This document shows positions 1 to 16,113 of a stretch of 20,000 bases of DNA, piece by piece. The stretch lies in IMG/VR virus record IMGVR_UViG_3300034073_001408. One strand, written 5' to 3'. Within the stretch, counting starts at the first letter, position 1. The number at the start of each line of letters is the position of its first letter. A program made the translations under genes and the position numbers. The notes under the pieces were generated by a model. The model was given only the letters and a program-made list of their open reading frames with translations. It made no database searches and had not been told where the DNA came from. This DNA comes from an uncultured virus (IMG/VR IMGVR_UViG_3300034073_001408). Its lineage: Duplodnaviria; Heunggongvirae; Uroviricota; Caudoviricetes.

Positions 1-392
1 ACATGTGGGAAGGCGCAAACTTCAAGCTAAAGATTCGTAAAGTAGAAGGTTATCCTAACTACGATAAGTCAGAGTTTGATAAGCAAGCAGCGCTATCAGA
101 TGACGACGAAGAACTAGAGCGTATTTGGAAGAGCCAACACGCACTCAGCGAGTTCATCAGCGAATCTAACTTCAAGTCATATGACGAATTGAAGCAGAAG
201 CTGTATGATGTTCTTGAGCTAGAAAATGATGACGTTGCTACAGTCAAGCCAACTGAGTCAATTTCACGCAAGCCTGACATTCAGAAGCCTGCGCCAGCTC
301 AGAAAAAGAAGACAGTAGAAGACGAGAAGCCTTGGAAAGATGACGATGACGACGAAAGTCTGAGTTACTTCGAAAAGCTAGCTGAAGAGTAA
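1..392 (+). CDS. gp32: Single-stranded DNA-binding protein, T4 gp32-like (3' part; gene starts upstream of the window)
   Basis: Contains WEGANFKLKIRKVEGYPNYDKSEF, FKSYDELKQKL and the acidic tail DDDDDESLSYFEKLAEE, all typical of gp32 in T4-like phages. Stop TAA at 390-392. Confidence 0.95.
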   Translation, partial: MWEGANFKLKIRKVEGYPNYDKSEFDKQAALSDDDEELERIWKSQHALSEFISESNFKSYDELKQKLYDVLELENDDVATVKPTESISRKPDIQKPAPAQKKKTVEDEKPWKDDDDDESLSYFEKLAEE

Positions 393-395
393 GCA

Positions 396-426
396 AAAGG
401 GGATCGCAAGATCTCCTTTCTCTTTG
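396..426 (+). terminator. Intrinsic terminator between convergent gp32 and tape-measure genes, probably bidirectional
   Basis: AAAGGGGATC-GCAA-GATCTCCTTT forms a 10-bp stem (one G-U pair) with a GNRA tetraloop, followed by CTCTTT. The 5' A-run supplies a U-tract on the minus strand. Confidence 0.8.
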
Positions 427-430
427 TGCA

Positions 431-3400
431 TCAGAACATTCTAGGTCTAGTCACTGAGCGAGTAAACGCACCTGTGATTGGATTGTCACTGCGAACACCA
501 CCAGAAGACTGATTGACGATGTTAGTCTGTGGGCTTGACACATTGTTCACTGTCTGATTGATCATAGAATTGTTGACTGAAGTCACAATTTCTTTCTCAG
601 CTTGCAGAACTCGGTTCATCTCTTGTTGTTGCATGTATGCGCTTGAGACTGGAGATGAAGATGCTTGTACGTTCTGTATCACAACTTCAGGTTTCTTTGT
701 CGCGACGACAGCCTCAATTGCATTGCGTGCCATAGAATCATATGGAGAAGCATTCTTTAGTGCTTCAAAAATCTTGTGTGTTGGTATGACAGTTCCGCCT
801 TGATTTGGAACAACGATTTCTGGTCCAGCTTCACCGACGAGCATAGGATGATTGCCAGCAAACTTACCGCCAGAAGCCCAACCTCCACCGTCACCGCCAC
901 CACCACCTCCTCCTGTATCTGATATTCCTTCCATTCCTGCGATGCCGCCGCCGTCAGATATTCCAACTCCAGCGGCAGCCGCAGCAGCCGAGTCAGCCGC
1001 GGCTTGTCCACCAGCATCAGCAGAAGCAGCAGCTAGCGCTGCGTCCATAGACGCAACTGAAATTCCAGCGGTAGTTTCTGCCGCAGTTACTGAAACAGTT
1101 CCATCTGCGGCTACAGCAACAGATCCTCCAATAGCAGCAGCCGCTTCTGCCATAGACGATATGGCTTCAGCTTGAGCACTAATAGCATCCATTTGAGCAT
1201 CGACAACAGCTTGTCCAGCAAGACCGATGACGGCACCAGTAACTCCGCCGAGAATACCTAAGCTCTCAGATATTCCCATCATGCCGAGACCCATTGATAT
1301 TGCGGCTTCGCTGACAGCGGTAGAAACACCATCAGTTCCGGCAGAAACTGCATCACCGAGGCCACCTTCACCACCAATAACTTCATATACAGTATTAGCT
1401 AAACTAGACGCAGCATTATTGACAAGCAGTGTAGTTTGCTCTGTTGTCAAATTCATTGCCGTGGCATAAGATGCAATAGCAGTTCCTGTCGCAGCAGTCA
1501 AAGCGTCAATAGAATTTGATGTAAAATCTTCGACTGTGTATAGAGCAGAAGTTACAGTGTTTGCGGATGTAGTTAGACCGTCGATAACGCCTGAAGAAGA
1601 TGATGTGACTGCATTGGTAACAACTTGACTTGTATATTCAGCAGCATTAGACAATGAATTTATGTTATCTGCGAGAATTGCTTCTGGAGTATCTATATTA
1701 GAATATGCAGGATCAAAACTTAGTTCTCCAGCAGGACCAGCTCCAATTCCACGCTCTCTCTGAGTAAATACAATTTCAACTGGTTCAGTGTTTGCGCCAG
1801 ATGCAGTAATTTGATCCTGCACTACTCCAGCTTGCAAGAATTTGGTAGCAGCAATCATCACATCTGACAATGTTTCAGCAGCTTCTGCGGTTTGTCCAGA
1901 AGCATTATACTGTTCTCTAGCAGTAGCTACCATTTGCTGCGCAATATCTTGACGCTCTTCTAAACTCATCTTGAACATGTCTTCACTGAAAGCAACGCCA
2001 GAATCTTTGAGTTCCATCTGAGCAACTCTGAGATCCTGTTTCAAATTATCAAGACGAATTTGATTTCTTTCTTCTTCACTAAAAGCTAGTTGCTCAAATG
2101 TTCCCATCGTCTGCTGAAACATTTCAGCACCACCGAAGCCTTCAACTAACTTGTCCATCAAATCAGATGTATAAACTTTCAAATAGTCGGCAGACATTCC
2201 CTCAATACTCTCTGGCAATGCGAAGAATGTCTTAGGATCAATGAATCCCAATGCACGAATTGATGGTTCGGCAATCGTAAATGCATTACCAAGTCTTGCT
2301 AGTGCATCTGACGCACCCTCTCCGTCTTTCACGAATTGATCCATGAAAGGTAAAACCTTCTTGATCATGTTATCACTAAAGCCCTCAAATGCTTTAGTGA
2401 TGATGTCCATTCTTTCCTGTTCAGTTTCTTTTCCAGTGAAACTTATCTTGATCGCTTCGGCGAATTCTGTAATGTCTTTTTTTCTATTGAATAATCCGAA
2501 TATTCCTTTACCGCCGCCACCATAAGTGGTACTCAATCCCAAATTCTGAAGTAGCTTCTTATTTGATTCACCAATATCTTTTGTTATATCACTAAATGCT
2601 TTTGCTGTTTCAGCATCAAGTGCTGAAACATTTACTCCACTCTTGTCGCTTCTGAGCCAACCGCCTTTTTGTGACCATTCTTCAAACTGCTGTATATTAT
2701 TTTGACCTGTTCCAGAAAGTGTTCCCTCAAATCCTCTAGCGCCAATCTTCTTCTCTCCCATGCCAAAAACACGATTTGCGATACCTTTGATTCCTCCGGC
2801 AATTGCGCCGCCGATAGGACCAAATACAGCAGAAGCGACAGCAACACCAGCATCACCCAGTTTATCCACAAAGTTATTCATCTTATATTCACCACCAATA
2901 AGACCTTCGGCCATTTTGCCATACTGATAGCCCTGAAGAACATTTCCTGCTATTCCAGCAGCCGTTCCGAACATGTGTGAAGTATTGCCAGATTGGAAAG
3001 CAGCGCTGATACCGTCCCAGCCCTGACCAGCAGCAGTTATACCTGTGCCAAAGTCCATGACTCCTTGTCTTGCGAAATTTGGCATCCAGTTACTCATTGC
3101 CATATTTGAGAACATGCCGCCGAGTTTATTCGGCAACGCTGACGCAGAAGAGCTAAAGAGTTGCCCCCATGACATGACGTCGCCTAAACCGAACTGTTTT
3201 CCTATGCTGCCTGGTAGACTGAATCCTTTGCCTGTGACTAGAGACTGAATTAGATTGCCAGCTACGCCACTGAGTGCACCACCCATTAGATTGCCGCGTG
3301 ATCTACCTCCAGTTAGTGCAGAAACAAGTGCAGCGCCAGCTAGATTACTTCCGATGCCAACAAGTCTTCCTCCAGCACCTGGTATTCCTCCGCCAGCTTG

Positions 3401-6400
3401 ACTTTGTGCAAATGCAGGACCGCTGAATGGATCGTTTACTCCACCACCATACTGAGGTGCAGCAACAAGATTTCCGTTCTGATCGTAAACAACAGTGCCG
3501 CCTCCCGGCGTCGTTGTTGGTCTCTGAGAATCAAATCCTCGTTGAATTCCAGTTGTGACTGCGTTTTCTATTGCTGGAGTGATTGTCTTATCATATGCAC
3601 TAGTAATAGCGTCAGCAGACATCTTAGCTTCTAGCTCACGCATTCTGACGACATCGCCAGCTTTCATCGCATAAGACTGTTTGTTCGTGCCAAACAGAGG
3701 ATCAAACGGCGCTCCGAAAACTGAAGCAAGATCCTTAGTGAGAAGATCAGCGCCACCGTACTGGTCGATCATGTTTCTTGGCGTCAGTGCGATGCCAGTC
3801 ATTCCGTAGAGAAGATCGCCTAGAGCAGATTGGTTGTATTGCTTCTTTAGATCAGCTAGCTGTCTTTTCTGCGCTTCTTGTTGCTCAACTGTAGCTTTTA
3901 GTTGATTGTATTGTTGAATGCGAGATAGTTGATCACCAGTAAAACCGCCCTTGCCCGCTGCGCGAATTATGTCAGCTTCAGTTACTTTGCCTTCTTTTTC
4001 AAACTTCTGAAGCTCTTCTCTTGATTGTGTCAACGATGCATTGATTTGCTTCAACTGAGGATCAACAACTTCAATTCCCTTCATGTATGTGTTGATTGAG
4101 CGATTGAGTATGTCAGCTTTCATGCCCAATGTTGGAGCTAACGTCTCATTGATAAACTCATTTAGATACACGCCGGCTAGTTGTTGGAATGTCTGACCAA
4201 TGCCAGCTCCGTATTGCTTGCCGAAAATGAATGTCCCTAGCTGTGTAAAATTCTTTTGCAGTGTGTTAGTGAGTGTTGTTCCTGCATTGATCATTGCTTC
4301 AGGACCGAACGTACCTGCGGGTCCAGACAAAGCATCGACAATTGGCCTGAAAATTCCTTGCATCTGAGAGTGAAATTGCTCCTGAAGACGTCTTCTTTCA
4401 TTTTCATATTCAGTTAATCTATTCAAACTCTCTTGATGATTTTTATTTTGATTTTCAATGTGTTTTCTGCTAAATTCTTCATCATTCCTTAGCTGCATTT
4501 CCAATTTTTTATTTTCAATATCAACTATAGTTCTCTGATACTTCTCGCTTTCCCTTTCTAAATTGATAAGTCTTTCTAGCTCTTCTGAGCTTAATTTTTC
4601 TTCATTCGCAGCAAGATATGCGATCTCATTAGTTATATTTGTTAAATCATTCGTTAAACTTTCAATTGCAGATTCGTATGACGAGAATATTGAAATATCA
4701 ACTAAACTTGTGTCAGCAGCTTCTTTAGGTAGTTTTTTACCAGTTACAGTAACGATTTGTTTAGCAGATGATGGCGCTGAAGATGAACTCGTCGGCATCG
4801 ATGAAGATAATGCACTTTGTGACGATGCATTTTTTCCACCGAATGTTCCTTTTCCTAAATCTACTCCAGTCGATCCATCAAGACTAACGTGAAAGTGCCC
4901 ACCAGTTGAATTTGCAGATGGATTTGCATACTCATCTATAACTTTGCCGCCAGTTATGTTAGCTACAGCAGTCGCTATCGATTTTCTCACATCGTCATTC
5001 ATCGCCATGTTTTGCGGAATGACGAAATCAAATGCTAAGCCCTTAGTATGTAAACTTGCTGGAGCTTTTTCTTCGTGGTATTTGTCATTAAATCCAGTGA
5101 AACTTGCATAAGGAAATGCAGCTTGAACGCTCTTTGCGCCCTCAATCGTTTGTGGTGCAATAAATGCGCCCGCCTTTTGAGCTTGTTCTGGACCTCTCTT
5201 TGGAACATTTATTCCTAAATCTCTCAAATCAGTTTCAGTATATCCTTTATTGCCTGATCTTGAAAGTCTTGCAGTTTCAGCAGCCGATTGATTATCGGCT
5301 TTGCCCATGACACTTGGCGTAGTGTCAGCTTTCATCGAAGACAAATCGGTTTTGCTTATGGAAAGTCTTTCTTTCCATCCAGCTTTCATCTCATCACTGA
5401 TAAACTCTATAGTTCCAAATCTAGTCTCAAATCTGCTCGGTATTGAATCGATGGCGGCGGCAATCATTCCATTGACGCCCTCTGTCATCCAATTAGCTAT
5501 GCCCTCAATAAATGTTATTGCCGCATTATAAATTTTCTTCGCTGGATCTGAAATATATCTACTCAAAACATCAGTCAAATCACCTATCATACTGCTAAAC
5601 GTGTTGCTCAGATCAACACCAGCTCTGTCTATTGTGCCTTTATCAAAGGTGATTAATCCCTTCAATAGTGTGAATGTGCTTCCAATTATAGAGAATATGT
5701 CATTGAAGAAATTTGTCATGTATGCAGTCATTCTAGACTGCATACTCTCTTGACCATCAACTTTGAAATCGGTTCCGAATACTGAATTTATTATCCATTT
5801 AACTGCATCTATTAATCCACCAATGACAGAACCAATCAATCCGCCGAAGAACGCAGAGAGTCTATCCATCCAAGAAACATCTTCTTTTACTTTATTCAAA
5901 TCTTTAGCAATTTGATCAGTATCAAATGAAGCAAAAATGCCTTCTACAGCAGATATGATCCATCCAATAAATGGTAGCTTTTTCAATACATTACTAAAGA
6001 GTGGTTTAGCTTTTTCTAAAATTACCATCAACTCTGGTATATCAAACAAAAACTTAAACACATCAGTTATTTTAGTAAATACTCCAGAAACAACTCCCCA
6101 TGATTTACTGATATAAGCTAAAGCTCCGCCAGCGGCTGTAAATACTTTACCTAAGAATCCAGTTTCTCCAAACAGATATTTGAGTTCGTCAAATCCTTGA
6201 ATTTGTTTACCTAAGTCAAACATCATTCCCAACTCAGCAAAGTTGGGCAATTTGATCAATCCCATCAAGTCTGTAGCTATAAGTTTAAATCCAACAAAAA
6301 ACTCATCAGCTATTAGAGTAAATTTGCTCGTTCTAAAAGCAGCAAATAACTCAGTGAATGAAGTTGATACTTTTGTAGAAAACTCATCAGCAAGAGTAGC

Positions 6401-7423
6401 TAATTTAGATTCGCGTAATGATTTAAATATATCATCAAAAAAAGTTGATGTCTTACTTGCTACATCCGAAGATGCGCCAGCGACTTTAGTTGCATCTGTC
6501 AGTGCTGTTAGTCTATTCGATATAGATTCATTTAGACTCTTAAACGAAGATCCCACTTTGCTAAAACCAGCAGAAATATCATCCAATATTAATGAAAATG
6601 CTTTCGCTAAATTTGATTCGGAAAATACTTTAATAGCGTCAGATACTGTTCCAAAAATCTTAGTTTTTAGTTCATTAAATCCTAGCTTCATCAGATCACG
6701 AACAAAATCTAATCCTTCACCAAACATGCGAATGAAGCTACGAATTCCATCTCCTATTTGATCAAATTTGAGTAACTTACTCAACCCATCGAATTTAAAA
6801 AGTTTCTTTAGATTATCAATCCAACCACCCAAAAGGTCACTCAGTTTGGGGAATTTAATTTTTTGAAAATACTTGAGAATATCATCAAATATGTTTCCAA
6901 ATTTACTTGGAATCTTCTTCAAAAAGTCTGGTATAGCTTTCAGAAAGTCTGGAATTTTCTTCAAAAAATCTGGTATCGCTTTGACGAGATCAACAACTTT
7001 ACCCAGACCACCTTTCAAAAAGTCCTTTACTGCTTGTAGCATTTTTCCTAGAGGAGAAAGCATATCAAACAAAGAACTCTTCTTAGTGAGTGCTTCTAGA
7101 ATCTTAGCTACATCTTTTTGAATGAGTTCGAGATTAGACGCCATCGACTGAAATAGATCACGCACTGAGTCGTCATACTTTTTCTTTTCATTCTGACGCT
7201 CTTCTTCAAAGCCGCGAGTTCTTTGCTCTCTTTGCTGCTCACTTTTTTCAGATGTTTGTTGACGCTTCTCTAATCGTCTAAATCCACGCTCAAGTGCACC
7301 AACCATAGGAGTGAATCCAACAGCACCAGACATAGAAGATTTGATGCCGCTGGATACACTCTTGAGTGATGACTTGATTGACGATGAGATTGCTTCGCCT
7401 AGAGATTTTGCTTGATCAGCCAT
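431..7423 (-). CDS. Giant tail tape-measure / baseplate hub (gp29-like) protein, 2330 aa, with an internal M15-type peptidase motif
   Basis: Lies directly downstream of the gp26/gp51-like genes. Has N-terminal coiled coils, amphipathic and hydrophobic helices (KKLPFIGWIISAVEG, FFGGLIGSVIGG), SLHTKGLAFD...HFH, a tape-measure-type C-terminal motif (WASGG...LVGEAGPEIVVP..GGTVIP) and an N/V/S/Q-rich tail like gp29 homologues. Confidence 0.8.
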   Translation of the reverse strand: MADQAKSLGEAISSSIKSSLKSVSSGIKSSMSGAVGFTPMVGALERGFRRLEKRQQTSEKSEQQREQRTRGFEEERQNEKKKYDDSVRDLFQSMASNLELIQKDVAKILEALTKKSSLFDMLSPLGKMLQAVKDFLKGGLGKVVDLVKAIPDFLKKIPDFLKAIPDFLKKIPSKFGNIFDDILKYFQKIKFPKLSDLLGGWIDNLKKLFKFDGLSKLLKFDQIGDGIRSFIRMFGEGLDFVRDLMKLGFNELKTKIFGTVSDAIKVFSESNLAKAFSLILDDISAGFSKVGSSFKSLNESISNRLTALTDATKVAGASSDVASKTSTFFDDIFKSLRESKLATLADEFSTKVSTSFTELFAAFRTSKFTLIADEFFVGFKLIATDLMGLIKLPNFAELGMMFDLGKQIQGFDELKYLFGETGFLGKVFTAAGGALAYISKSWGVVSGVFTKITDVFKFLFDIPELMVILEKAKPLFSNVLKKLPFIGWIISAVEGIFASFDTDQIAKDLNKVKEDVSWMDRLSAFFGGLIGSVIGGLIDAVKWIINSVFGTDFKVDGQESMQSRMTAYMTNFFNDIFSIIGSTFTLLKGLITFDKGTIDRAGVDLSNTFSSMIGDLTDVLSRYISDPAKKIYNAAITFIEGIANWMTEGVNGMIAAAIDSIPSRFETRFGTIEFISDEMKAGWKERLSISKTDLSSMKADTTPSVMGKADNQSAAETARLSRSGNKGYTETDLRDLGINVPKRGPEQAQKAGAFIAPQTIEGAKSVQAAFPYASFTGFNDKYHEEKAPASLHTKGLAFDFVIPQNMAMNDDVRKSIATAVANITGGKVIDEYANPSANSTGGHFHVSLDGSTGVDLGKGTFGGKNASSQSALSSSMPTSSSSAPSSAKQIVTVTGKKLPKEAADTSLVDISIFSSYESAIESLTNDLTNITNEIAYLAANEEKLSSEELERLINLERESEKYQRTIVDIENKKLEMQLRNDEEFSRKHIENQNKNHQESLNRLTEYENERRRLQEQFHSQMQGIFRPIVDALSGPAGTFGPEAMINAGTTLTNTLQKNFTQLGTFIFGKQYGAGIGQTFQQLAGVYLNEFINETLAPTLGMKADILNRSINTYMKGIEVVDPQLKQINASLTQSREELQKFEKEGKVTEADIIRAAGKGGFTGDQLSRIQQYNQLKATVEQQEAQKRQLADLKKQYNQSALGDLLYGMTGIALTPRNMIDQYGGADLLTKDLASVFGAPFDPLFGTNKQSYAMKAGDVVRMRELEAKMSADAITSAYDKTITPAIENAVTTGIQRGFDSQRPTTTPGGGTVVYDQNGNLVAAPQYGGGVNDPFSGPAFAQSQAGGGIPGAGGRLVGIGSNLAGAALVSALTGGRSRGNLMGGALSGVAGNLIQSLVTGKGFSLPGSIGKQFGLGDVMSWGQLFSSSASALPNKLGGMFSNMAMSNWMPNFARQGVMDFGTGITAAGQGWDGISAAFQSGNTSHMFGTAAGIAGNVLQGYQYGKMAEGLIGGEYKMNNFVDKLGDAGVAVASAVFGPIGGAIAGGIKGIANRVFGMGEKKIGARGFEGTLSGTGQNNIQQFEEWSQKGGWLRSDKSGVNVSALDAETAKAFSDITKDIGESNKKLLQNLGLSTTYGGGGKGIFGLFNRKKDITEFAEAIKISFTGKETEQERMDIITKAFEGFSDNMIKKVLPFMDQFVKDGEGASDALARLGNAFTIAEPSIRALGFIDPKTFFALPESIEGMSADYLKVYTSDLMDKLVEGFGGAEMFQQTMGTFEQLAFSEEERNQIRLDNLKQDLRVAQMELKDSGVAFSEDMFKMSLEERQDIAQQMVATAREQYNASGQTAEAAETLSDVMIAATKFLQAGVVQDQITASGANTEPVEIVFTQRERGIGAGPAGELSFDPAYSNIDTPEAILADNINSLSNAAEYTSQVVTNAVTSSSSGVIDGLTTSANTVTSALYTVEDFTSNSIDALTAATGTAIASYATAMNLTTEQTTLLVNNAASSLANTVYEVIGGEGGLGDAVSAGTDGVSTAVSEAAISMGLGMMGISESLGILGGVTGAVIGLAGQAVVDAQMDAISAQAEAISSMAEAAAAIGGSVAVAADGTVSVTAAETTAGISVASMDAALAAASADAGGQAAADSAAAAAAGVGISDGGGIAGMEGISDTGGGGGGGDGGGWASGGKFAGNHPMLVGEAGPEIVVPNQGGTVIPTHKIFEALKNASPYDSMARNAIEAVVATKKPEVVIQNVQASSSPVSSAYMQQQEMNRVLQAEKEIVTSVNNSMINQTVNNVSSPQTNIVNQSSGGVRSDNPITGAFTRSVTRPRMF
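6909..6983 (-). repeat. In-frame 21-bp tandem repeat (42-bp higher-order unit) inside the tape measure gene
   Basis: Encodes KAIPDFL-KKIPDFL-KAIPDFL-KKIP. DNA units ggaatcttcttcaaaaagtctggtatagcttt and ggaattttcttcaaaaaatctggtatcgcttt are near-identical. Confidence 0.85.
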
Positions 7424-13092: not shown

Positions 13093-14160
13093 ATGTTACT
13101 CTCATTCTCAGAATTCATGGATGTCAGAAAATTAGAAATTAGCACAGACATTCAAGAAAAATTAATTGTATACGGTGGCGGTAAGAAGTATGGGCAGATT
13201 GTGTTCATGGCTGGTGGTGCTGGATCAGGAAAAGGTTTCGCAATCTCCAACTTCGTGAACAGCAGCGACTTCAAGATCAGAGACGTTGATGAGTTGAAGC
13301 TAGCTTTTCAGAAACTTGACGATTTGAGAATCTTTTCAACAGAAGAACTTTTGTTGAAGTATAAAGACAAGTTGTCTGAGAAAGACATCAAGCACATTGA
13401 AGACCATGTTTTGTCTAAAGGTTACTCACTGCGCGATTTGAACTTGAAGACGCCAGAACATGTCTATGCGCTGCATGTTCTCGTCGCAGCGACTGGTGTA
13501 AAGAACAAAACTCTTGACTTGATGTTGCAGAATGCAAAGCCGGGAACACTACCAAACATCATCTTTGACACAACATTCAAAGACATGGATGAGATGAATG
13601 AGTTAGTTCCTCGGCTGTTGAGTATTGGTTACGAAGCAAAAGACATTCACATCACTTGGGTGTTGACAAACTACGAAATCGCTATCAAGAACAATGCAAA
13701 GAGAAGTAGAGTAGTTCCTGCTGACATCATGCTAAAGACTCACGTTGGCGCTGCATCTACAGTCATGCAGCTAGCGCATCAAGGTGTTCCTAGCACAGTA
13801 GACGGCGGTTTCTACGTTATTTTAAACAATCCAAAAAATACTTTGTTTGCAATTGATCCAGATGAATATCGAAATAAATTTAAATTATTTCTAGCGAAAA
13901 AAGGCATTGCATCTTTTAACGATTTAAGCACTAAAGAAAAGAAAAAAATATTTAGCGAATTTGAAGCAAAACACAAAAAAGAAAAAGCATACGAAAGTAC
14001 CAAAGGCAAAAAAGTTGTCAGCAATTTCTTGTATTTGACACTCAAGAAGCCAGGAAAAGCGATGACAGACGACACTGATATCAAAAAGCAGCTTTACGAT
14101 TGGGTTACGAAGAACGTTCCCAAACAAGCGCTGGACAAGATCGCAATGGACAAGTTATGA
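13093..14160 (+). CDS. P-loop kinase (zeta-toxin/AAA_33-like) with a putative capsid-targeting propeptide
   Basis: Walker A VFMAGGAGSGKG, RDVDE, NIIFDTT and lid-like AIKNNAKRSRVVP. N-terminus is MLLSFSEF...LE...IQE. SD AAGGA lies upstream. Confidence 0.8.
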   Translation: MLLSFSEFMDVRKLEISTDIQEKLIVYGGGKKYGQIVFMAGGAGSGKGFAISNFVNSSDFKIRDVDELKLAFQKLDDLRIFSTEELLLKYKDKLSEKDIKHIEDHVLSKGYSLRDLNLKTPEHVYALHVLVAATGVKNKTLDLMLQNAKPGTLPNIIFDTTFKDMDEMNELVPRLLSIGYEAKDIHITWVLTNYEIAIKNNAKRSRVVPADIMLKTHVGAASTVMQLAHQGVPSTVDGGFYVILNNPKNTLFAIDPDEYRNKFKLFLAKKGIASFNDLSTKEKKKIFSEFEAKHKKEKAYESTKGKKVVSNFLYLTLKKPGKAMTDDTDIKKQLYDWVTKNVPKQALDKIAMDKL

Positions 14161-14398: not shown

Positions 14399-15889
14399 AT
14401 GTTCATTGGTCAGGATGGATTTATTTGGTGGATCGGCGTCGTTGAAGATAACAATGATCCTCTACTGATTGGTAGAGCGCGTGTTCGCATTTTTGGATAT
14501 CATCCAAAAGCAAAGCGAGATGAAACTTATACTAAAACTGCAAACAATAATGTTCCTACTGCGTATTTGCCTTGGGCAATACCACTGATGCCATTGAACT
14601 TGCCAAATGCATACGGAAAGATATCTATCGGAGAATGGGTTTGCGGCTTCTTTCTTGACGGCGAGAATGCGCAAGAACCAGTCATGATGGGTTATTTACC
14701 AGCAGCGAGAAAACAATCAGAATTTACTTACAGTAAAAGAGAGACGCAAAGAAACTTTCAAGACTTAGAAGGTCCAATTGCTGACGGCGAATACTTCGGT
14801 TTAGAATTTGAAAACAAGTCAAATAGATTTGAGTGGCATACTCCTTCAAATCATCATATAAGAATAACTGAAGTCGCTAATGACTACGGCAATAAAGATT
14901 TCGTTCTAGCACATGCTACTGGAAATCTTTTCGTAGCTATGCAGACAGACAAAAATGGAATATCTAGATTAGCACTTTCACATCCATCTGGAACAAGTAT
15001 CATACTAGCTGAAGATGATATTTACGTGAATAGTCCAAAATGGGGCAATTTTCCACTTGTAAATCAAATAAATTGGGTAGCATATAATCAACACACCACT
15101 CAAGGCGGAAGCAAGCGTGGTCCTAGAAATTTCACAATCGGAACTCGCGCAAATCCACCAGCACCACCGCCACCAAGAAGAGGTGGAGGCGGATGCTTCA
15201 TAGAGTCTTCACTCATTGCGATGGCAGATGGGTCTAAGAAAATGATTTGTGAAGTTCAAATCGGAGATTACGTTCTCGCTAGAGATGGAAAAACTATCAA
15301 CAAAGTTAGATTTATTGAAGTAAATGATTCAAAGTATCACAATGAACTATACACTCCAAATCCAGAGATCGAGGCGTTTGCAACTACAGATCATCCGATC
15401 TACGTAGAAGATGAACTTGTATCTGCTGATTTAAAATTGACTCAATCATGCTATCCTTGGCTCAGAGTAACTCGCGAATTCAATAGCATAGATGTCACGT
15501 TTGATGAAAATAAATATGACTACGTGTATAATCTATGGGTAGATGGAGATGGAACTTACATCGTCAATGGATGTGGAACAACATCAATCATCTTTGACGG
15601 CGGAATGCTCTCGGACTTTGTTGAGATGGGATACTTTGACGTCAGCAAAGTCAGACATCTATACGAAGAATACACAAAGAATGGAAACACTCTTCTTCAC
15701 GGAGCATTCATTCTAAATTATGCTCTAGGCAAGCTCAAATCACGCATTCTATATAGATTAGTAGCATACGCTGCTAGTAAAGACTTTAAGAGTTTGACTA
15801 GAAAACTTATTGTTACTCTTCCAATGTTAGCGTGTGCGAAGTTAGCACACTTAACTGAAAAATTACATAAATGGAGATTCTTCAAATGA
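14399..15889 (+). CDS. gp5: Baseplate central spike gp5-like protein (OB fold, no lysozyme) fused to a Hint domain and a 100-aa C-terminal extension
   Basis: The N-terminus GQDGFIWWIGVVEDNNDPLLIGRARVRIFGYH...LPWA...GEWVCGFFLDGENAQEPVMMG is the gp5 OB fold. From C266 it reads CFIESSLIAMADG, VQIGDYV, TTDHP, VYNLWVDGDGTYIVNG (Hint blocks). SD GAGGA lies upstream. Confidence 0.92.
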   Translation: MFIGQDGFIWWIGVVEDNNDPLLIGRARVRIFGYHPKAKRDETYTKTANNNVPTAYLPWAIPLMPLNLPNAYGKISIGEWVCGFFLDGENAQEPVMMGYLPAARKQSEFTYSKRETQRNFQDLEGPIADGEYFGLEFENKSNRFEWHTPSNHHIRITEVANDYGNKDFVLAHATGNLFVAMQTDKNGISRLALSHPSGTSIILAEDDIYVNSPKWGNFPLVNQINWVAYNQHTTQGGSKRGPRNFTIGTRANPPAPPPPRRGGGGCFIESSLIAMADGSKKMICEVQIGDYVLARDGKTINKVRFIEVNDSKYHNELYTPNPEIEAFATTDHPIYVEDELVSADLKLTQSCYPWLRVTREFNSIDVTFDENKYDYVYNLWVDGDGTYIVNGCGTTSIIFDGGMLSDFVEMGYFDVSKVRHLYEEYTKNGNTLLHGAFILNYALGKLKSRILYRLVAYAASKDFKSLTRKLIVTLPMLACAKLAHLTEKLHKWRFFK

Positions 15890-16113
15890 GCGATGAAGTT
15901 AGTGAAAACAAACCAATAGTAACTGAACCATGCCCTAAACCAGTAGAGGTTGAACTCAACTTTATGGATCATGCACTCAATTGGCTTGAGACAATCTCTG
16001 AAGATGATGCTAATAAGTTTTTGAATGGGATCACTATTGATGCTGCGTTAGTGCTGTTCAAGCACTTTCCTGATAATCAACTAGTGAAAGAAGTCTTACA
16101 TTCTAAAGTATAG
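15886..16113 (+). CDS. Small acidic hypothetical protein (75 aa), translationally coupled to gp5
   Basis: ATGA overlap with the gp5 stop, with GGAG at 15873-15876. No family recognised. Confidence 0.7.
   Translation: MSDEVSENKPIVTEPCPKPVEVELNFMDHALNWLETISEDDANKFLNGITIDAALVLFKHFPDNQLVKEVLHSKV

Follow-up and report, generated by a model that had tools for sequence, protein, structure and literature searches.

Hint domains have so far been met in inteins, in Hedgehog processing domains, in bacterial intein-like (BIL) domains and in toxin-releasing peptidases. Here, we describe a Hint domain located at the C-terminus of a gp5-like baseplate hub protein, encoded by a stretch of 20,000 nucleotides (hereafter the window) that corresponds to the tail and baseplate region of a T4-like myophage, marine and uncultured (IMG/VR record IMGVR_UViG_3300034073_001408). 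The last 231 residues of this protein comprise the Hint domain and a helical tail of ~100 residues, together termed the cassette. We give about an even chance to the reading that these residues form a self-processing cassette, which would act as a removable C-terminal assembly module and the thioester of which would be hydrolyzed.

BIL domains give mainly cleaved products (PMC7664689), and that of the Tetrahymena BUBL1 protein, BIL2, attaches to lysines the ubiquitin-like domain that precedes it, its block-B His being described as catalytic (PMC8616854). Hog proteins associate a Hint domain with a sterol- or adduct-recognition region (SRR/ARR) as an extension, and use only the first acyl shift (PMC2362128). 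In polymorphic toxins, PT-HINT is a releasing peptidase that works by autoproteolysis, and HINT is stated never to occur with type VI secretion (T6SS) or Photorhabdus virulence cassette (PVC) systems (PMC3482391). Tailspikes are known to possess an intramolecular chaperone autocleavage (ICA) domain (PMC8326128), and fractured genes have been reported from marine metagenomes (Dassa 2009, PMC2677866). A paper that mentions both the Hint domain and the baseplate (PMC5259590) and the phiCbK paper (PMC3556154) discuss only inteins, and no description of a Hint-plus-tail cassette on phage tail proteins was found in the open-access and bioRxiv literature. Hint autoprocessing domains being a known kind, what is new in the cassette is its subfamily, its partner domain and its biological setting.

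A Hint-plus-tail cassette at the C-terminus of gp5

The cassette and the linker that precedes it map to the window as follows, conservation being counted over 215 distinct cassettes (212 for Cys1, Phe2 and the residue before Cys1).

14399..15889, + strand: gp5-like baseplate hub open reading frame (ORF) carrying the cassette, 496 residues; read directly from the DNA, with the stop codon TGA at 15887-15889 after KWRFFK
15155..15193, + strand: Pro/Arg/Gly linker PPAPPPPRRGGGG, residues 253-265, after N252; read directly from the DNA, ending at the predicted scissile Gly265
15194..15196, + strand: codon TGC of Cys266, residue 1 and nucleophile of the Hint domain, followed by FIE; read directly from the DNA
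15194..15586, + strand: Hint domain, residues 266-396 (131 residues), of mini-size and with no endonuclease insert; predicted local distance difference test (pLDDT) score 90.5 with AlphaFold2 (AF2)
15383..15394, + strand: block B, T329-T-D-H332 (TxxH), preceded by Ala, the His lying over the block-B His of BIL2 (TVNH)
15524..15571, + strand: block F, V376 to G391, VYNLWVDGDGTYIVNG; N378 conserved in 208/215, D384 in 213/215, T386 in 212/215 and N390 in 211/215
15584..15586, + strand: Ser396, standing where inteins have their terminal Asn (block G, G-T-T-S); the DNA reads CGTTS396 then IIFDGG, with a register good to about one residue
15596..15604, + strand: D400-G-G motif at the Hint/tail junction; Asp 185, Gly 200 and Gly 184 of 215
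15587..15886, + strand: C-terminal tail, residues 397-496, a five-helix basic domain; helices at positions 153-240 of the cassette model, pLDDT mostly >90

Direct reading of the DNA reproduces the elements listed in the preliminary description of this gene (PPPP-RR-GGGG linker, C266 at 15194, TTDH, block F and CGTTS), and its statement that no endonuclease is present agrees with the 131 residues of the Hint part. The AF2 model of the cassette, computed for residues 250-496 from an alignment of 38 sequences, has a pLDDT of 90.5 and a predicted template modeling score (pTM) of 0.86, and is beta-rich up to residue 395, with five helices at 402-489. Foldseek ranks BIL2 first (E 1e-8), followed by Vint from Tetrahymena (8e-8), the C. 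thermocellum BIL 2lwy (2e-6), many inteins and Hedgehog Hh-C (1.3e-3), 23 matches being returned at E≤1e-3. A second, independent all-against-all structural search reports BIL2 with a Z-score of 14.9 (root-mean-square deviation (rmsd) 2.3 over 129 residues), BIL with 13.2 and Hedgehog 1at0 with 12.4 (rmsd 2.5 over 115 residues); the solved chains at Z≥8 number 27, and all those listed are intein, BIL, Vint or Hedgehog entries. The structural alignments pair model residues 17 to 147 with the first to last residues of inteins (2imz 1..440, 1dq3 1..454), which places Cys266 at residue 1 and Ser396 at the terminal Asn. When the family profile is compared with the PDB, BIL2 is retrieved at E 6e-6, 'geCF' covering the BIL2 N-terminus and 'TinH' covering 'TVNH', and Cys266 is aligned to residue 1 of BIL2, here a C1A construct. 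As judged from the predicted structure, residues 266-396 belong to the HINT superfamily at the fold level, and the Hint domain that had been proposed for the gp5 C-terminus is borne out by its pLDDT of 90.5 and by Z-scores of 14.9 to 8 against solved Hint domains.

Searches of profile libraries with the window protein returned neither an NCBIfam hit, intein models included, nor, at E≤0.01, a hit with PF07591 (PT-HINT) or with PF13403 (B-type BIL/Hint_2), the latter being seen only on multi-Hint relatives; Pfam reports no Peptidase_S74 hit. The features of a class 1 intein are not found either: T395-S396 stands instead of His-Asn, and Ile397 follows, then the conserved tail and the stop, so that there is no C-extein.

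Conservation of the catalytic residues

A phmmer search with residues 250-496 against 1.84 billion cluster representatives returned 591 protein clusters at E≤1e-3, of which 166 reach ≤1e-10 and 71 reach ≤1e-30. A total of 267 proteins were collected (195 from the database and 72 locus ORFs), the cassette being full in 230, and its end lies at most 60 residues from the protein end in 228/230 (median 3). From 85 relatives found in IMG/VR, 80 were kept and 72 could be handled by a motif parser; the cassette stands at the ORF end in all 72, and the tail measures 85-104 residues in the 70 of these whose gene end lies inside the contig. Both the Hint fold and the recurrence of the cassette are far above chance.

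Cys1 and Phe2 are invariant (212/212 each), and so is the block-B His (215/215), the block-B Thr being Thr in 207 cassettes and Ser in 8. Other conserved positions are Phe327 and Trp354 (215 each), Asp384 (213), Asn390 (211) and Glu307 (202 of 215). At the terminal-Asn position, Ser is found in 192 of the 215 cassettes, Thr in 14, Asn in 5 and Cys in 3, the preceding position being Thr in 128 and His in 57. The family at large thereby repeats what had been noticed in the window, acyl-shift residues present (Cys1 212/212, Thr/Ser 215/215, His 215/215) and terminal Asn missing (Ser in 192/215). Since the residues of the first acyl shift are constrained and those of Asn cyclization are absent, N-terminal cleavage only, with no splicing, is predicted. 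Self-cleavage between Gly265 and Cys266 is therefore the expected and best-supported mechanism, as far as sequence and model can tell. A catalytically silent Hint, in which the 496-residue protein would stay whole in the virion and the cassette would form a structural tip domain, seems very improbable: nothing speaks for it directly, the sole point in its favor being the Pfam Hint models, which hit residues 264-316 only, about the first 50 residues, and stay below their cut-offs (Hom_end_hint 26.6 vs 32.1 bits; Hint PF01079, residues 264-308, 23.7 vs 29.7). Without catalysis, it would be difficult to account for the near-total conservation of the nucleophile and of TxxH in 215 cassettes.

The residue before Cys1 is Gly in only 86/212 cassettes, followed by Asp (43), Val (20) and Glu (14). 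Among the gp5-type relatives, PPP occurs at most 30 residues upstream of Cys1 in 28/32 and GGG at most 10 residues upstream in 22/32. The likening of the RRGGGG end to a ubiquitin-like C-terminus does not extend to the family and is not upheld, Gly at −1 being limited to these 86; unrelated modules that are not Hint domains also stand behind the same Pro/Arg/Gly linker. Seven loci (L030, L031, L033, L037, L063, L071 and L079) encode cassette proteins of ~370 residues with GGGGG-W-D-I-I-P-L-L-I-... before Cys1 and no Pro/Gly linker; this hydrophobic, helix-like stretch would be the new C-terminus after the predicted cleavage.

Comparison with described Hint systems

A-type BIL domains carry an intein-like C-terminal His-Asn without a +1 nucleophile; the cassette has no His-Asn, and does not fit this type. 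BIL domains (Tetrahymena BUBL1 BIL2, 6TMM/6Y75; C. thermocellum, 2LWY) are the best structural and profile matches of the cassette, being likewise of mini-size, devoid of endonuclease and not truly splicing. However, BIL2 and the A-type BIL end with His-Asn (the entry title of the solved BIL2 gives it as an N143A mutant) whereas the cassette ends with Thr/His-Ser, possesses a conserved helical extension of 100 residues that is absent from BILs, and is borne by phage tail proteins.

With Hedgehog/Hog proteins the cassette shares the fold (Z 12.4), a G|C-F junction in the window, the predicted restriction to the first acyl shift and a C-terminal extension after the Hint domain. The conserved extra domain behind the Hint is laid out as in the Hog architecture, which accords with the Hedgehog-like layout put forward earlier. 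In contrast, PF01079 scores 23.7 bits for a cut-off of 29.7, and no relative of the window tail was detected in the PDB and ESM Atlas searches. The general-base Asp of Hedgehog is D46, the residue named in the title of entry 6TYY, and our guess is that Glu307 is its equivalent.

The gp5 protein is the phage counterpart of VgrG. The PT-HINT of polymorphic toxins also lies near the C-terminus of large proteins, either of the surface or of an injection machine, but the domain that follows the cassette Hint is conserved across the 215 cassettes instead of being polymorphic, and nothing resembling an immunity gene pattern was seen. ICA domains stand at the C-terminus of trimeric phage tail proteins, whose assembly they assist before detaching themselves by self-cleavage; the analogy of the cassette with the ICA domains of tailspikes and fibers (Peptidase_S74) is only functional, fold and chemistry being unrelated and no S74 match being found.

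The helical tail

In the full-length model, the tail folds into a domain (residues 403-495) made of helices 403-409, 415-427, 430-446, 449-459 and 466-495, the same five as in the cassette model. G435 is conserved in 207/215 cassettes and N440 in 180/215. The net charge is +8 in the window, for a family median of +6, and no segment reaches transmembrane grade (maximum 19-residue hydropathy window 1.13). The helical, basic tail of ~100 residues anticipated from the sequence is therefore recovered as five helices carrying a net charge of +8.

No similarity to known domains, recognition domains included, was detected for the tail. A whole-PDB structural search gives a best Z of 4.9, which is not significant, and the helical NEL domain (SlrP, SspH1, IpaH), considered as a candidate relative, was rejected at a Z of at most 4.9, under the chance level for helical bundles. 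In the ESM Atlas, no score reaches 0.9 for the tail, the structural rows showing template modeling (TM) scores of ~0.5 to unrelated helical or membrane proteins. Tails lacking a Hint were looked for with a profile search of 49-158-residue proteins, which returned 2 hits, both of them fragments still holding block F.

Distribution and host proteins

Among 50,697 records of cultured or deposited phages searched with tblastn, no cassette was found; the single weak hit, to a Vibrio phage gene annotated as an NTPase, covers the first 126 residues. In prokaryotes, one genome for each of 185,579 species yielded 3 loci, all on contigs of metagenome-assembled genomes, in a search with one peptide pattern and of limited sensitivity. 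The cassette is virus-restricted and, being absent from the 50,697 cultured-phage records, cannot have been met at the bench. Such a large virus-only Hint subfamily with an obligatory partner domain would add a new post-translational maturation step to phage tail assembly.

The cassette hosts comprise gp5 hubs, a large DUF4815/phrog_358 protein named VrlC, Gly-rich 'virion structural' proteins and smaller groups, in loci flanked by baseplate-wedge and tail-fiber genes. Five viral records searched as a whole contain one match each, borne by gp5 in two of them (G002, G004), by VrlC in two (G003, G006) and by another host in the last (G005); the cassette, and not the host, is the conserved unit. 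A FastTree phylogeny of 207 cassettes, from which three very short rows were left out, tracks host type with 11 label changes for a shuffled mean of 54; it is compatible with a single gp5-type origin, and its starred branches force a few switches for the other host types. The cassette G+C equals that of its flanks. From this native G+C and from the tree tracking host type, it follows that the cassette is a long-kept part of these proteins.

Some proteins and loci (P0026, P0034, P0059, P0060, L034, L035, L046 and L051) possess Hint copies of canonical appearance, up to about eight in tandem, immediately before the terminal cassette. Every copy ends with His-Asn-Lys and runs directly into the next Cys. 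An HN end lies at most 8 residues from Cys1 in 14/210 proteins, the window protein not being one of them.

Fission of the VrlC gene

VrlC is a baseplate protein (PMC4621102). It is unsplit in the cultured Pelagibacter phage HTVC008M (L094), where it forms one ORF of 2001 residues, and two gp5-type records also encode it in single frames of 2016 and 2032 residues. At locus L003, the cassette ORF aligns with VrlC residues 1-1242 while the ORF starting 22 nucleotides downstream aligns with residues 1389-1999. VrlC-matching cassette ORFs amount to 35 among the parsed loci, and in 23/35 the C-terminal remainder of VrlC comes next, with a gap of −1 to +34 nucleotides; the other 12 include 7 loci without an assessable downstream ORF and 5 in which an ORF of 123-167 residues comes first. 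A three-way split occurs at four loci. Compared with HTVC008M, the break falls at residues ~1240-1480 (L003, L009, L012, L015 and others), the first ORF ending with a Pro/Gly linker and a C-terminal module, either the cassette or another one. Since VrlC is whole in relatives and halved at the cassette, the cassette occupies in VrlC an internal, intein-like place, at the end of the first of two ORFs. It thereby marks sites where big baseplate genes are cut in two.

This arrangement recalls split inteins and the fractured genes, in which a Hint element also stands, in phage-rich marine metagenomes, at the break of a gene which relatives possess in one piece. In contrast with these, the Hint of the cassette is whole in the first ORF (blocks A, B, F and G), the second ORF starts with host sequence, and the terminal Asn is absent. 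With a whole Hint in the first ORF and host sequence only in the second, trans-splicing by fragment complementation is impossible.

From at least 595 related stretches found with an alignment to the VrlC N-terminus, 80 loci were sampled: 36 run off their contig, VrlC is intact in 26 and split without a Hint-plus-tail cassette in 11, and 7 are unclear. None of these 80 of at least 595 stretches carries the Hint-plus-tail cassette. The VrlC split hence occurs also without the cassette, and fission does not imply it. The idea that the cassette splits the gene of the Gly-rich host was rejected, a cassette-less cultured cyanophage having the same separate genes; in Gly-rich and gp5 hosts, the cassette lies at true C-termini and nothing is interrupted.

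Taken with the whole VrlC of the two gp5-type records, the intein-like internal place and the gene fission could suggest a domesticated or selfish intein remnant, which would have lost C-terminal splicing, gained a stop and become nearly harmless through N-terminal self-removal, the tail being baggage or an aid to spread. The patchy distribution, with none in the 50,697 cultured-phage records, and the canonical HN-ending tandem Hint copies upstream of the cassette in 14/210 proteins point the same way. We nevertheless regard this origin as distinctly unlikely: nothing nuclease-like is seen in the tail, which is clearly constrained, the tree follows host type with few switches, the composition is native, and at the true C-termini of gp5 and Gly-rich proteins no gene is interrupted.

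Other modules behind the same linker

The split VrlC N-halves devoid of the cassette end in other modules that follow the same kind of Pro/Gly linker. One such N-half carries a different Hint, ending with His-Asn; the others carry one of two unannotated modules.

Module 'CCV.ATAL', 118 residues (L110, L111, L114, L116): hydrophobic segment near the end
Module 'IICT/IICK', 114-160 residues (L117, L149, L084:2318-4165): hydrophobic segment near the end

In both modules, a Cys-containing motif comes first and immediately follows a poly-Gly or poly-Arg linker. The IIC module is likewise found at the end of gene 028 in the cultured Synechococcus phage SynMITS9220M01, behind 34 Pro, 8 Arg and Gly-Ser (40% identity, E 5e-31), and this gene is the cassette-less homolog of the Gly-rich host. 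As unrelated modules stand behind the same linker at the same places, the linker followed by an exchangeable C-terminal module is a general design of these tail proteins, of which the Hint-plus-tail cassette is one option. This wider design is unstudied; its presence in a cultured cyanophage makes it testable. A relationship of the tail to the two alternative modules was rejected (probability 0.2), and so was the idea that it is a remnant of the stretch of VrlC lost at the split (hhalign probability 0.1).

Proposed processing and function

In the reading that we favor, the protein would fold first, and Cys266 would then attack the Gly265 carbonyl in an N-S acyl shift aided by Thr329 and His332, as the conserved residues and the fold suggest. 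Lacking a terminal Asn, a downstream nucleophile and a C-extein, the thioester could not proceed to splicing and would presumably be resolved by water or a small thiol. Residues 1-265, ending with ...PPPPRRGGGG, would be released and the 231-residue Hint-tail fragment would be shed. By analogy, the cassette may cap a tail or baseplate protein at its end, or help that end to fold and oligomerize, and then remove itself so that the mature end is free. This role would be the same whether the host is gp5, VrlC or another tail protein, the cassette being one among several modules that can replace one another after the Pro/Arg/Gly linker. The cassette would then be a Hint-based counterpart, in function, of the self-cleaving intramolecular chaperones of tailspikes. 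Hydrolysis and a removable module are favored because unrelated modules share the place and the linker and because BILs mostly cleave; the presence of unrelated modules after the same linker fits a role serving the upstream protein end. A compact Hint of predicted N-cleavage-only type, with a putative built-in regulatory or recognition domain, is also a candidate self-removing tag or ligation tool.

Several observations count against a disposable assembly module. Each record has a single match (5/5), on different hosts, which suits at least equally a phage-level function of the released fragment. The tail and non-catalytic positions (E307 202, W354 215, DGG, and G435 207 of 215) are kept beyond what a disposable cap would need, and this extra conservation would suit a nucleophile-delivering or partner-binding role. 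The closest structure, BIL2, conjugates and does not merely cleave (PMC8616854). Finally, the two non-Hint modules behind the same linker contain no recognizable protease, hence 'removable' may not be the common theme. Because of the single match per record, the conserved tail and polar residues and the conjugation by BIL2, the transfer of the thioester and a useful released product both stay alive as explanations.

The second of these would be a polyprotein strategy, in which the useful product is the released basic Hint-tail fragment, its dose being fixed by an abundant late structural host protein. The single match per record in 5/5 with differing hosts is in line with it, as are the conservation of the tail whatever the host type, its never standing alone, its basic nature (median net charge +6) and the precedent of polymorphic toxins, in which HINT release of a C-terminal domain is established (PMC3482391). 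Yet there is no C-terminal cleavage chemistry, so that the Hint would remain fused to the tail, the searches assign no function to the tail, and the occurrence of unrelated modules at the same position indicates that the position matters rather than one cargo. We consider this strategy improbable.

A transfer of the Hedgehog or BIL2 kind seems to us a similarly doubtful prospect. Here, the Gly265 thioester would be attacked by a nucleophile placed by the tail, namely a Lys or N-terminal amine of a virion protein, or a lipid head group, resulting in a covalent attachment that needs no ATP. The Hint followed by a conserved extension of ~100 residues mirrors the Hint and SRR/ARR of Hog proteins (PMC2362128), the junction in the window is G|C-F, BIL2, the closest solved structure (Z 14.9), conjugates to lysines (PMC8616854), and invariant polar residues specific to the family lie near the catalytic blocks (E307, D400-G-G). 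In the VrlC-type loci, the remainder of VrlC, encoded by the next ORF in 23/35, is a natural acceptor candidate. On the other hand, no acceptor motif is found; the downstream ORFs have an ordinary start, M-[A/G/P/S/T/K], and a partner for native chemical ligation was rejected, as not one of them begins with Met-Cys. The tail is conserved across hosts with differing neighbors and is unlike any known recognition domain, and the residue at −1 varies. Relatives without any Hint have a split VrlC too, and re-joining is therefore unneeded for a split VrlC to work. If the thioester were transferred rather than hydrolyzed, a conjugation chemistry of the Hedgehog kind would be met for the first time in a virion.

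In a more specific form, which we deem distinctly unlikely, the cassette would be an ATP-independent protein ligase of virion assembly, the tail guiding the thioester to an amine of another virion component. The acceptor would be the separately translated C-terminal half for VrlC-type hosts and a tip or membrane component for gp5. Were this true, tail parts would be covalently stitched or the spike tip lipid-anchored, and the gene split would permit distal halves to be swapped while one covalent chain is still obtained.

The gp5-like host protein and its neighbors

Upstream of the cassette, two regions of the gp5-like protein can be delimited.

14399..14773, + strand: N-terminal OB-fold domain, residues 1-125; phrog_694, E 1.5e-28
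14825..15055, + strand: beta-strand region, residues 143-219; nine short strands in the AF2 full-length monomer model, block pLDDT 51-87

The match with the PHROG baseplate hub families (phrog_694/430/1922) is confined to residues 1-125, within which residues 5-83 match solved chains of T4-type gp5 (9f4a, 1pdl; E 1e-8 to 2e-7). The gp5 of Synechococcus phage S-WAM1 exhibits 33% identity over residues 2-198, the sole part that the window protein has in common with the gp5 of the cultured cyanophage (859 residues). The full-length AF2 monomer model is poor (mean pLDDT 66, pTM 0.38), and displays successively the OB fold, a disordered stretch, the strands 143-219, a disordered linker 225-264 (pLDDT <50 over 240-264) and the cassette. 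Of the triple beta-helix that forms the C-terminus of T4 gp5, the window shows in this poor model only the short strands 143-219, which are possibly part of a short spike or beta-helix. In a protein of 496 residues with a 231-residue cassette, little space is left for a lysozyme domain; the lysozyme part has no PDB match at E≤1 and no Pfam or PHROG coverage is seen past residue 125, which, being based on matches, is no proof of absence. In a 96%-complete VrlC-type relative (L092, G003:C1:64922-65212), the gp5 homolog is an open frame of 134 residues reduced to the OB fold. PAAR (PF05488) was found in 0/3 viral records examined, which is uninformative.

Immediately after gp5 lies a small ORF, a candidate partner of the cassette.

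15871..16113 as listed (80 residues), or from the inner ATG at 15886 (75 residues), + strand: small helical ORF downstream of gp5, its start overlapping the gp5 stop as ATGA

It returns no Pfam, PHROG or NCBIfam match, and a kinship with the ORF that follows S-WAM1 gp5 was rejected, no similarity being found. A profile search identifies homologs of ~57 residues directly after the cassette gene in 16/72 parsed loci (17 ORFs, two of them in L071), beside gp5-type and two other host types and never beside the VrlC type.

The remainder of the window encodes the end of gp32, an ORF of 2330 residues, a baseplate hub protein (PF12322), the tail tube protein, gp2- and gp4-like proteins and gp48/54-like proteins, then a Zeta-toxin-like P-loop ORF, the gp5-like ORF (14399-15889), gp25, gp6 and a gp7-like gene. 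The IMG/VR record to which the window belongs measures 78.5 kb. The window gp6 shares 37% identity with that of Pelagibacter phage HTVC008M, the cyanophages ranking next. The 2330-residue ORF (431-7423, − strand), located between gp32 and the baseplate hub gene, is matched by no entry of Pfam, PHROG or NCBIfam. The ORF at 13093-14160 (+ strand, 355 residues), which sits between the tail genes and gp5, matches a Zeta-toxin-type P-loop kinase (PF06414, 32.2 bits; phrog_5268).

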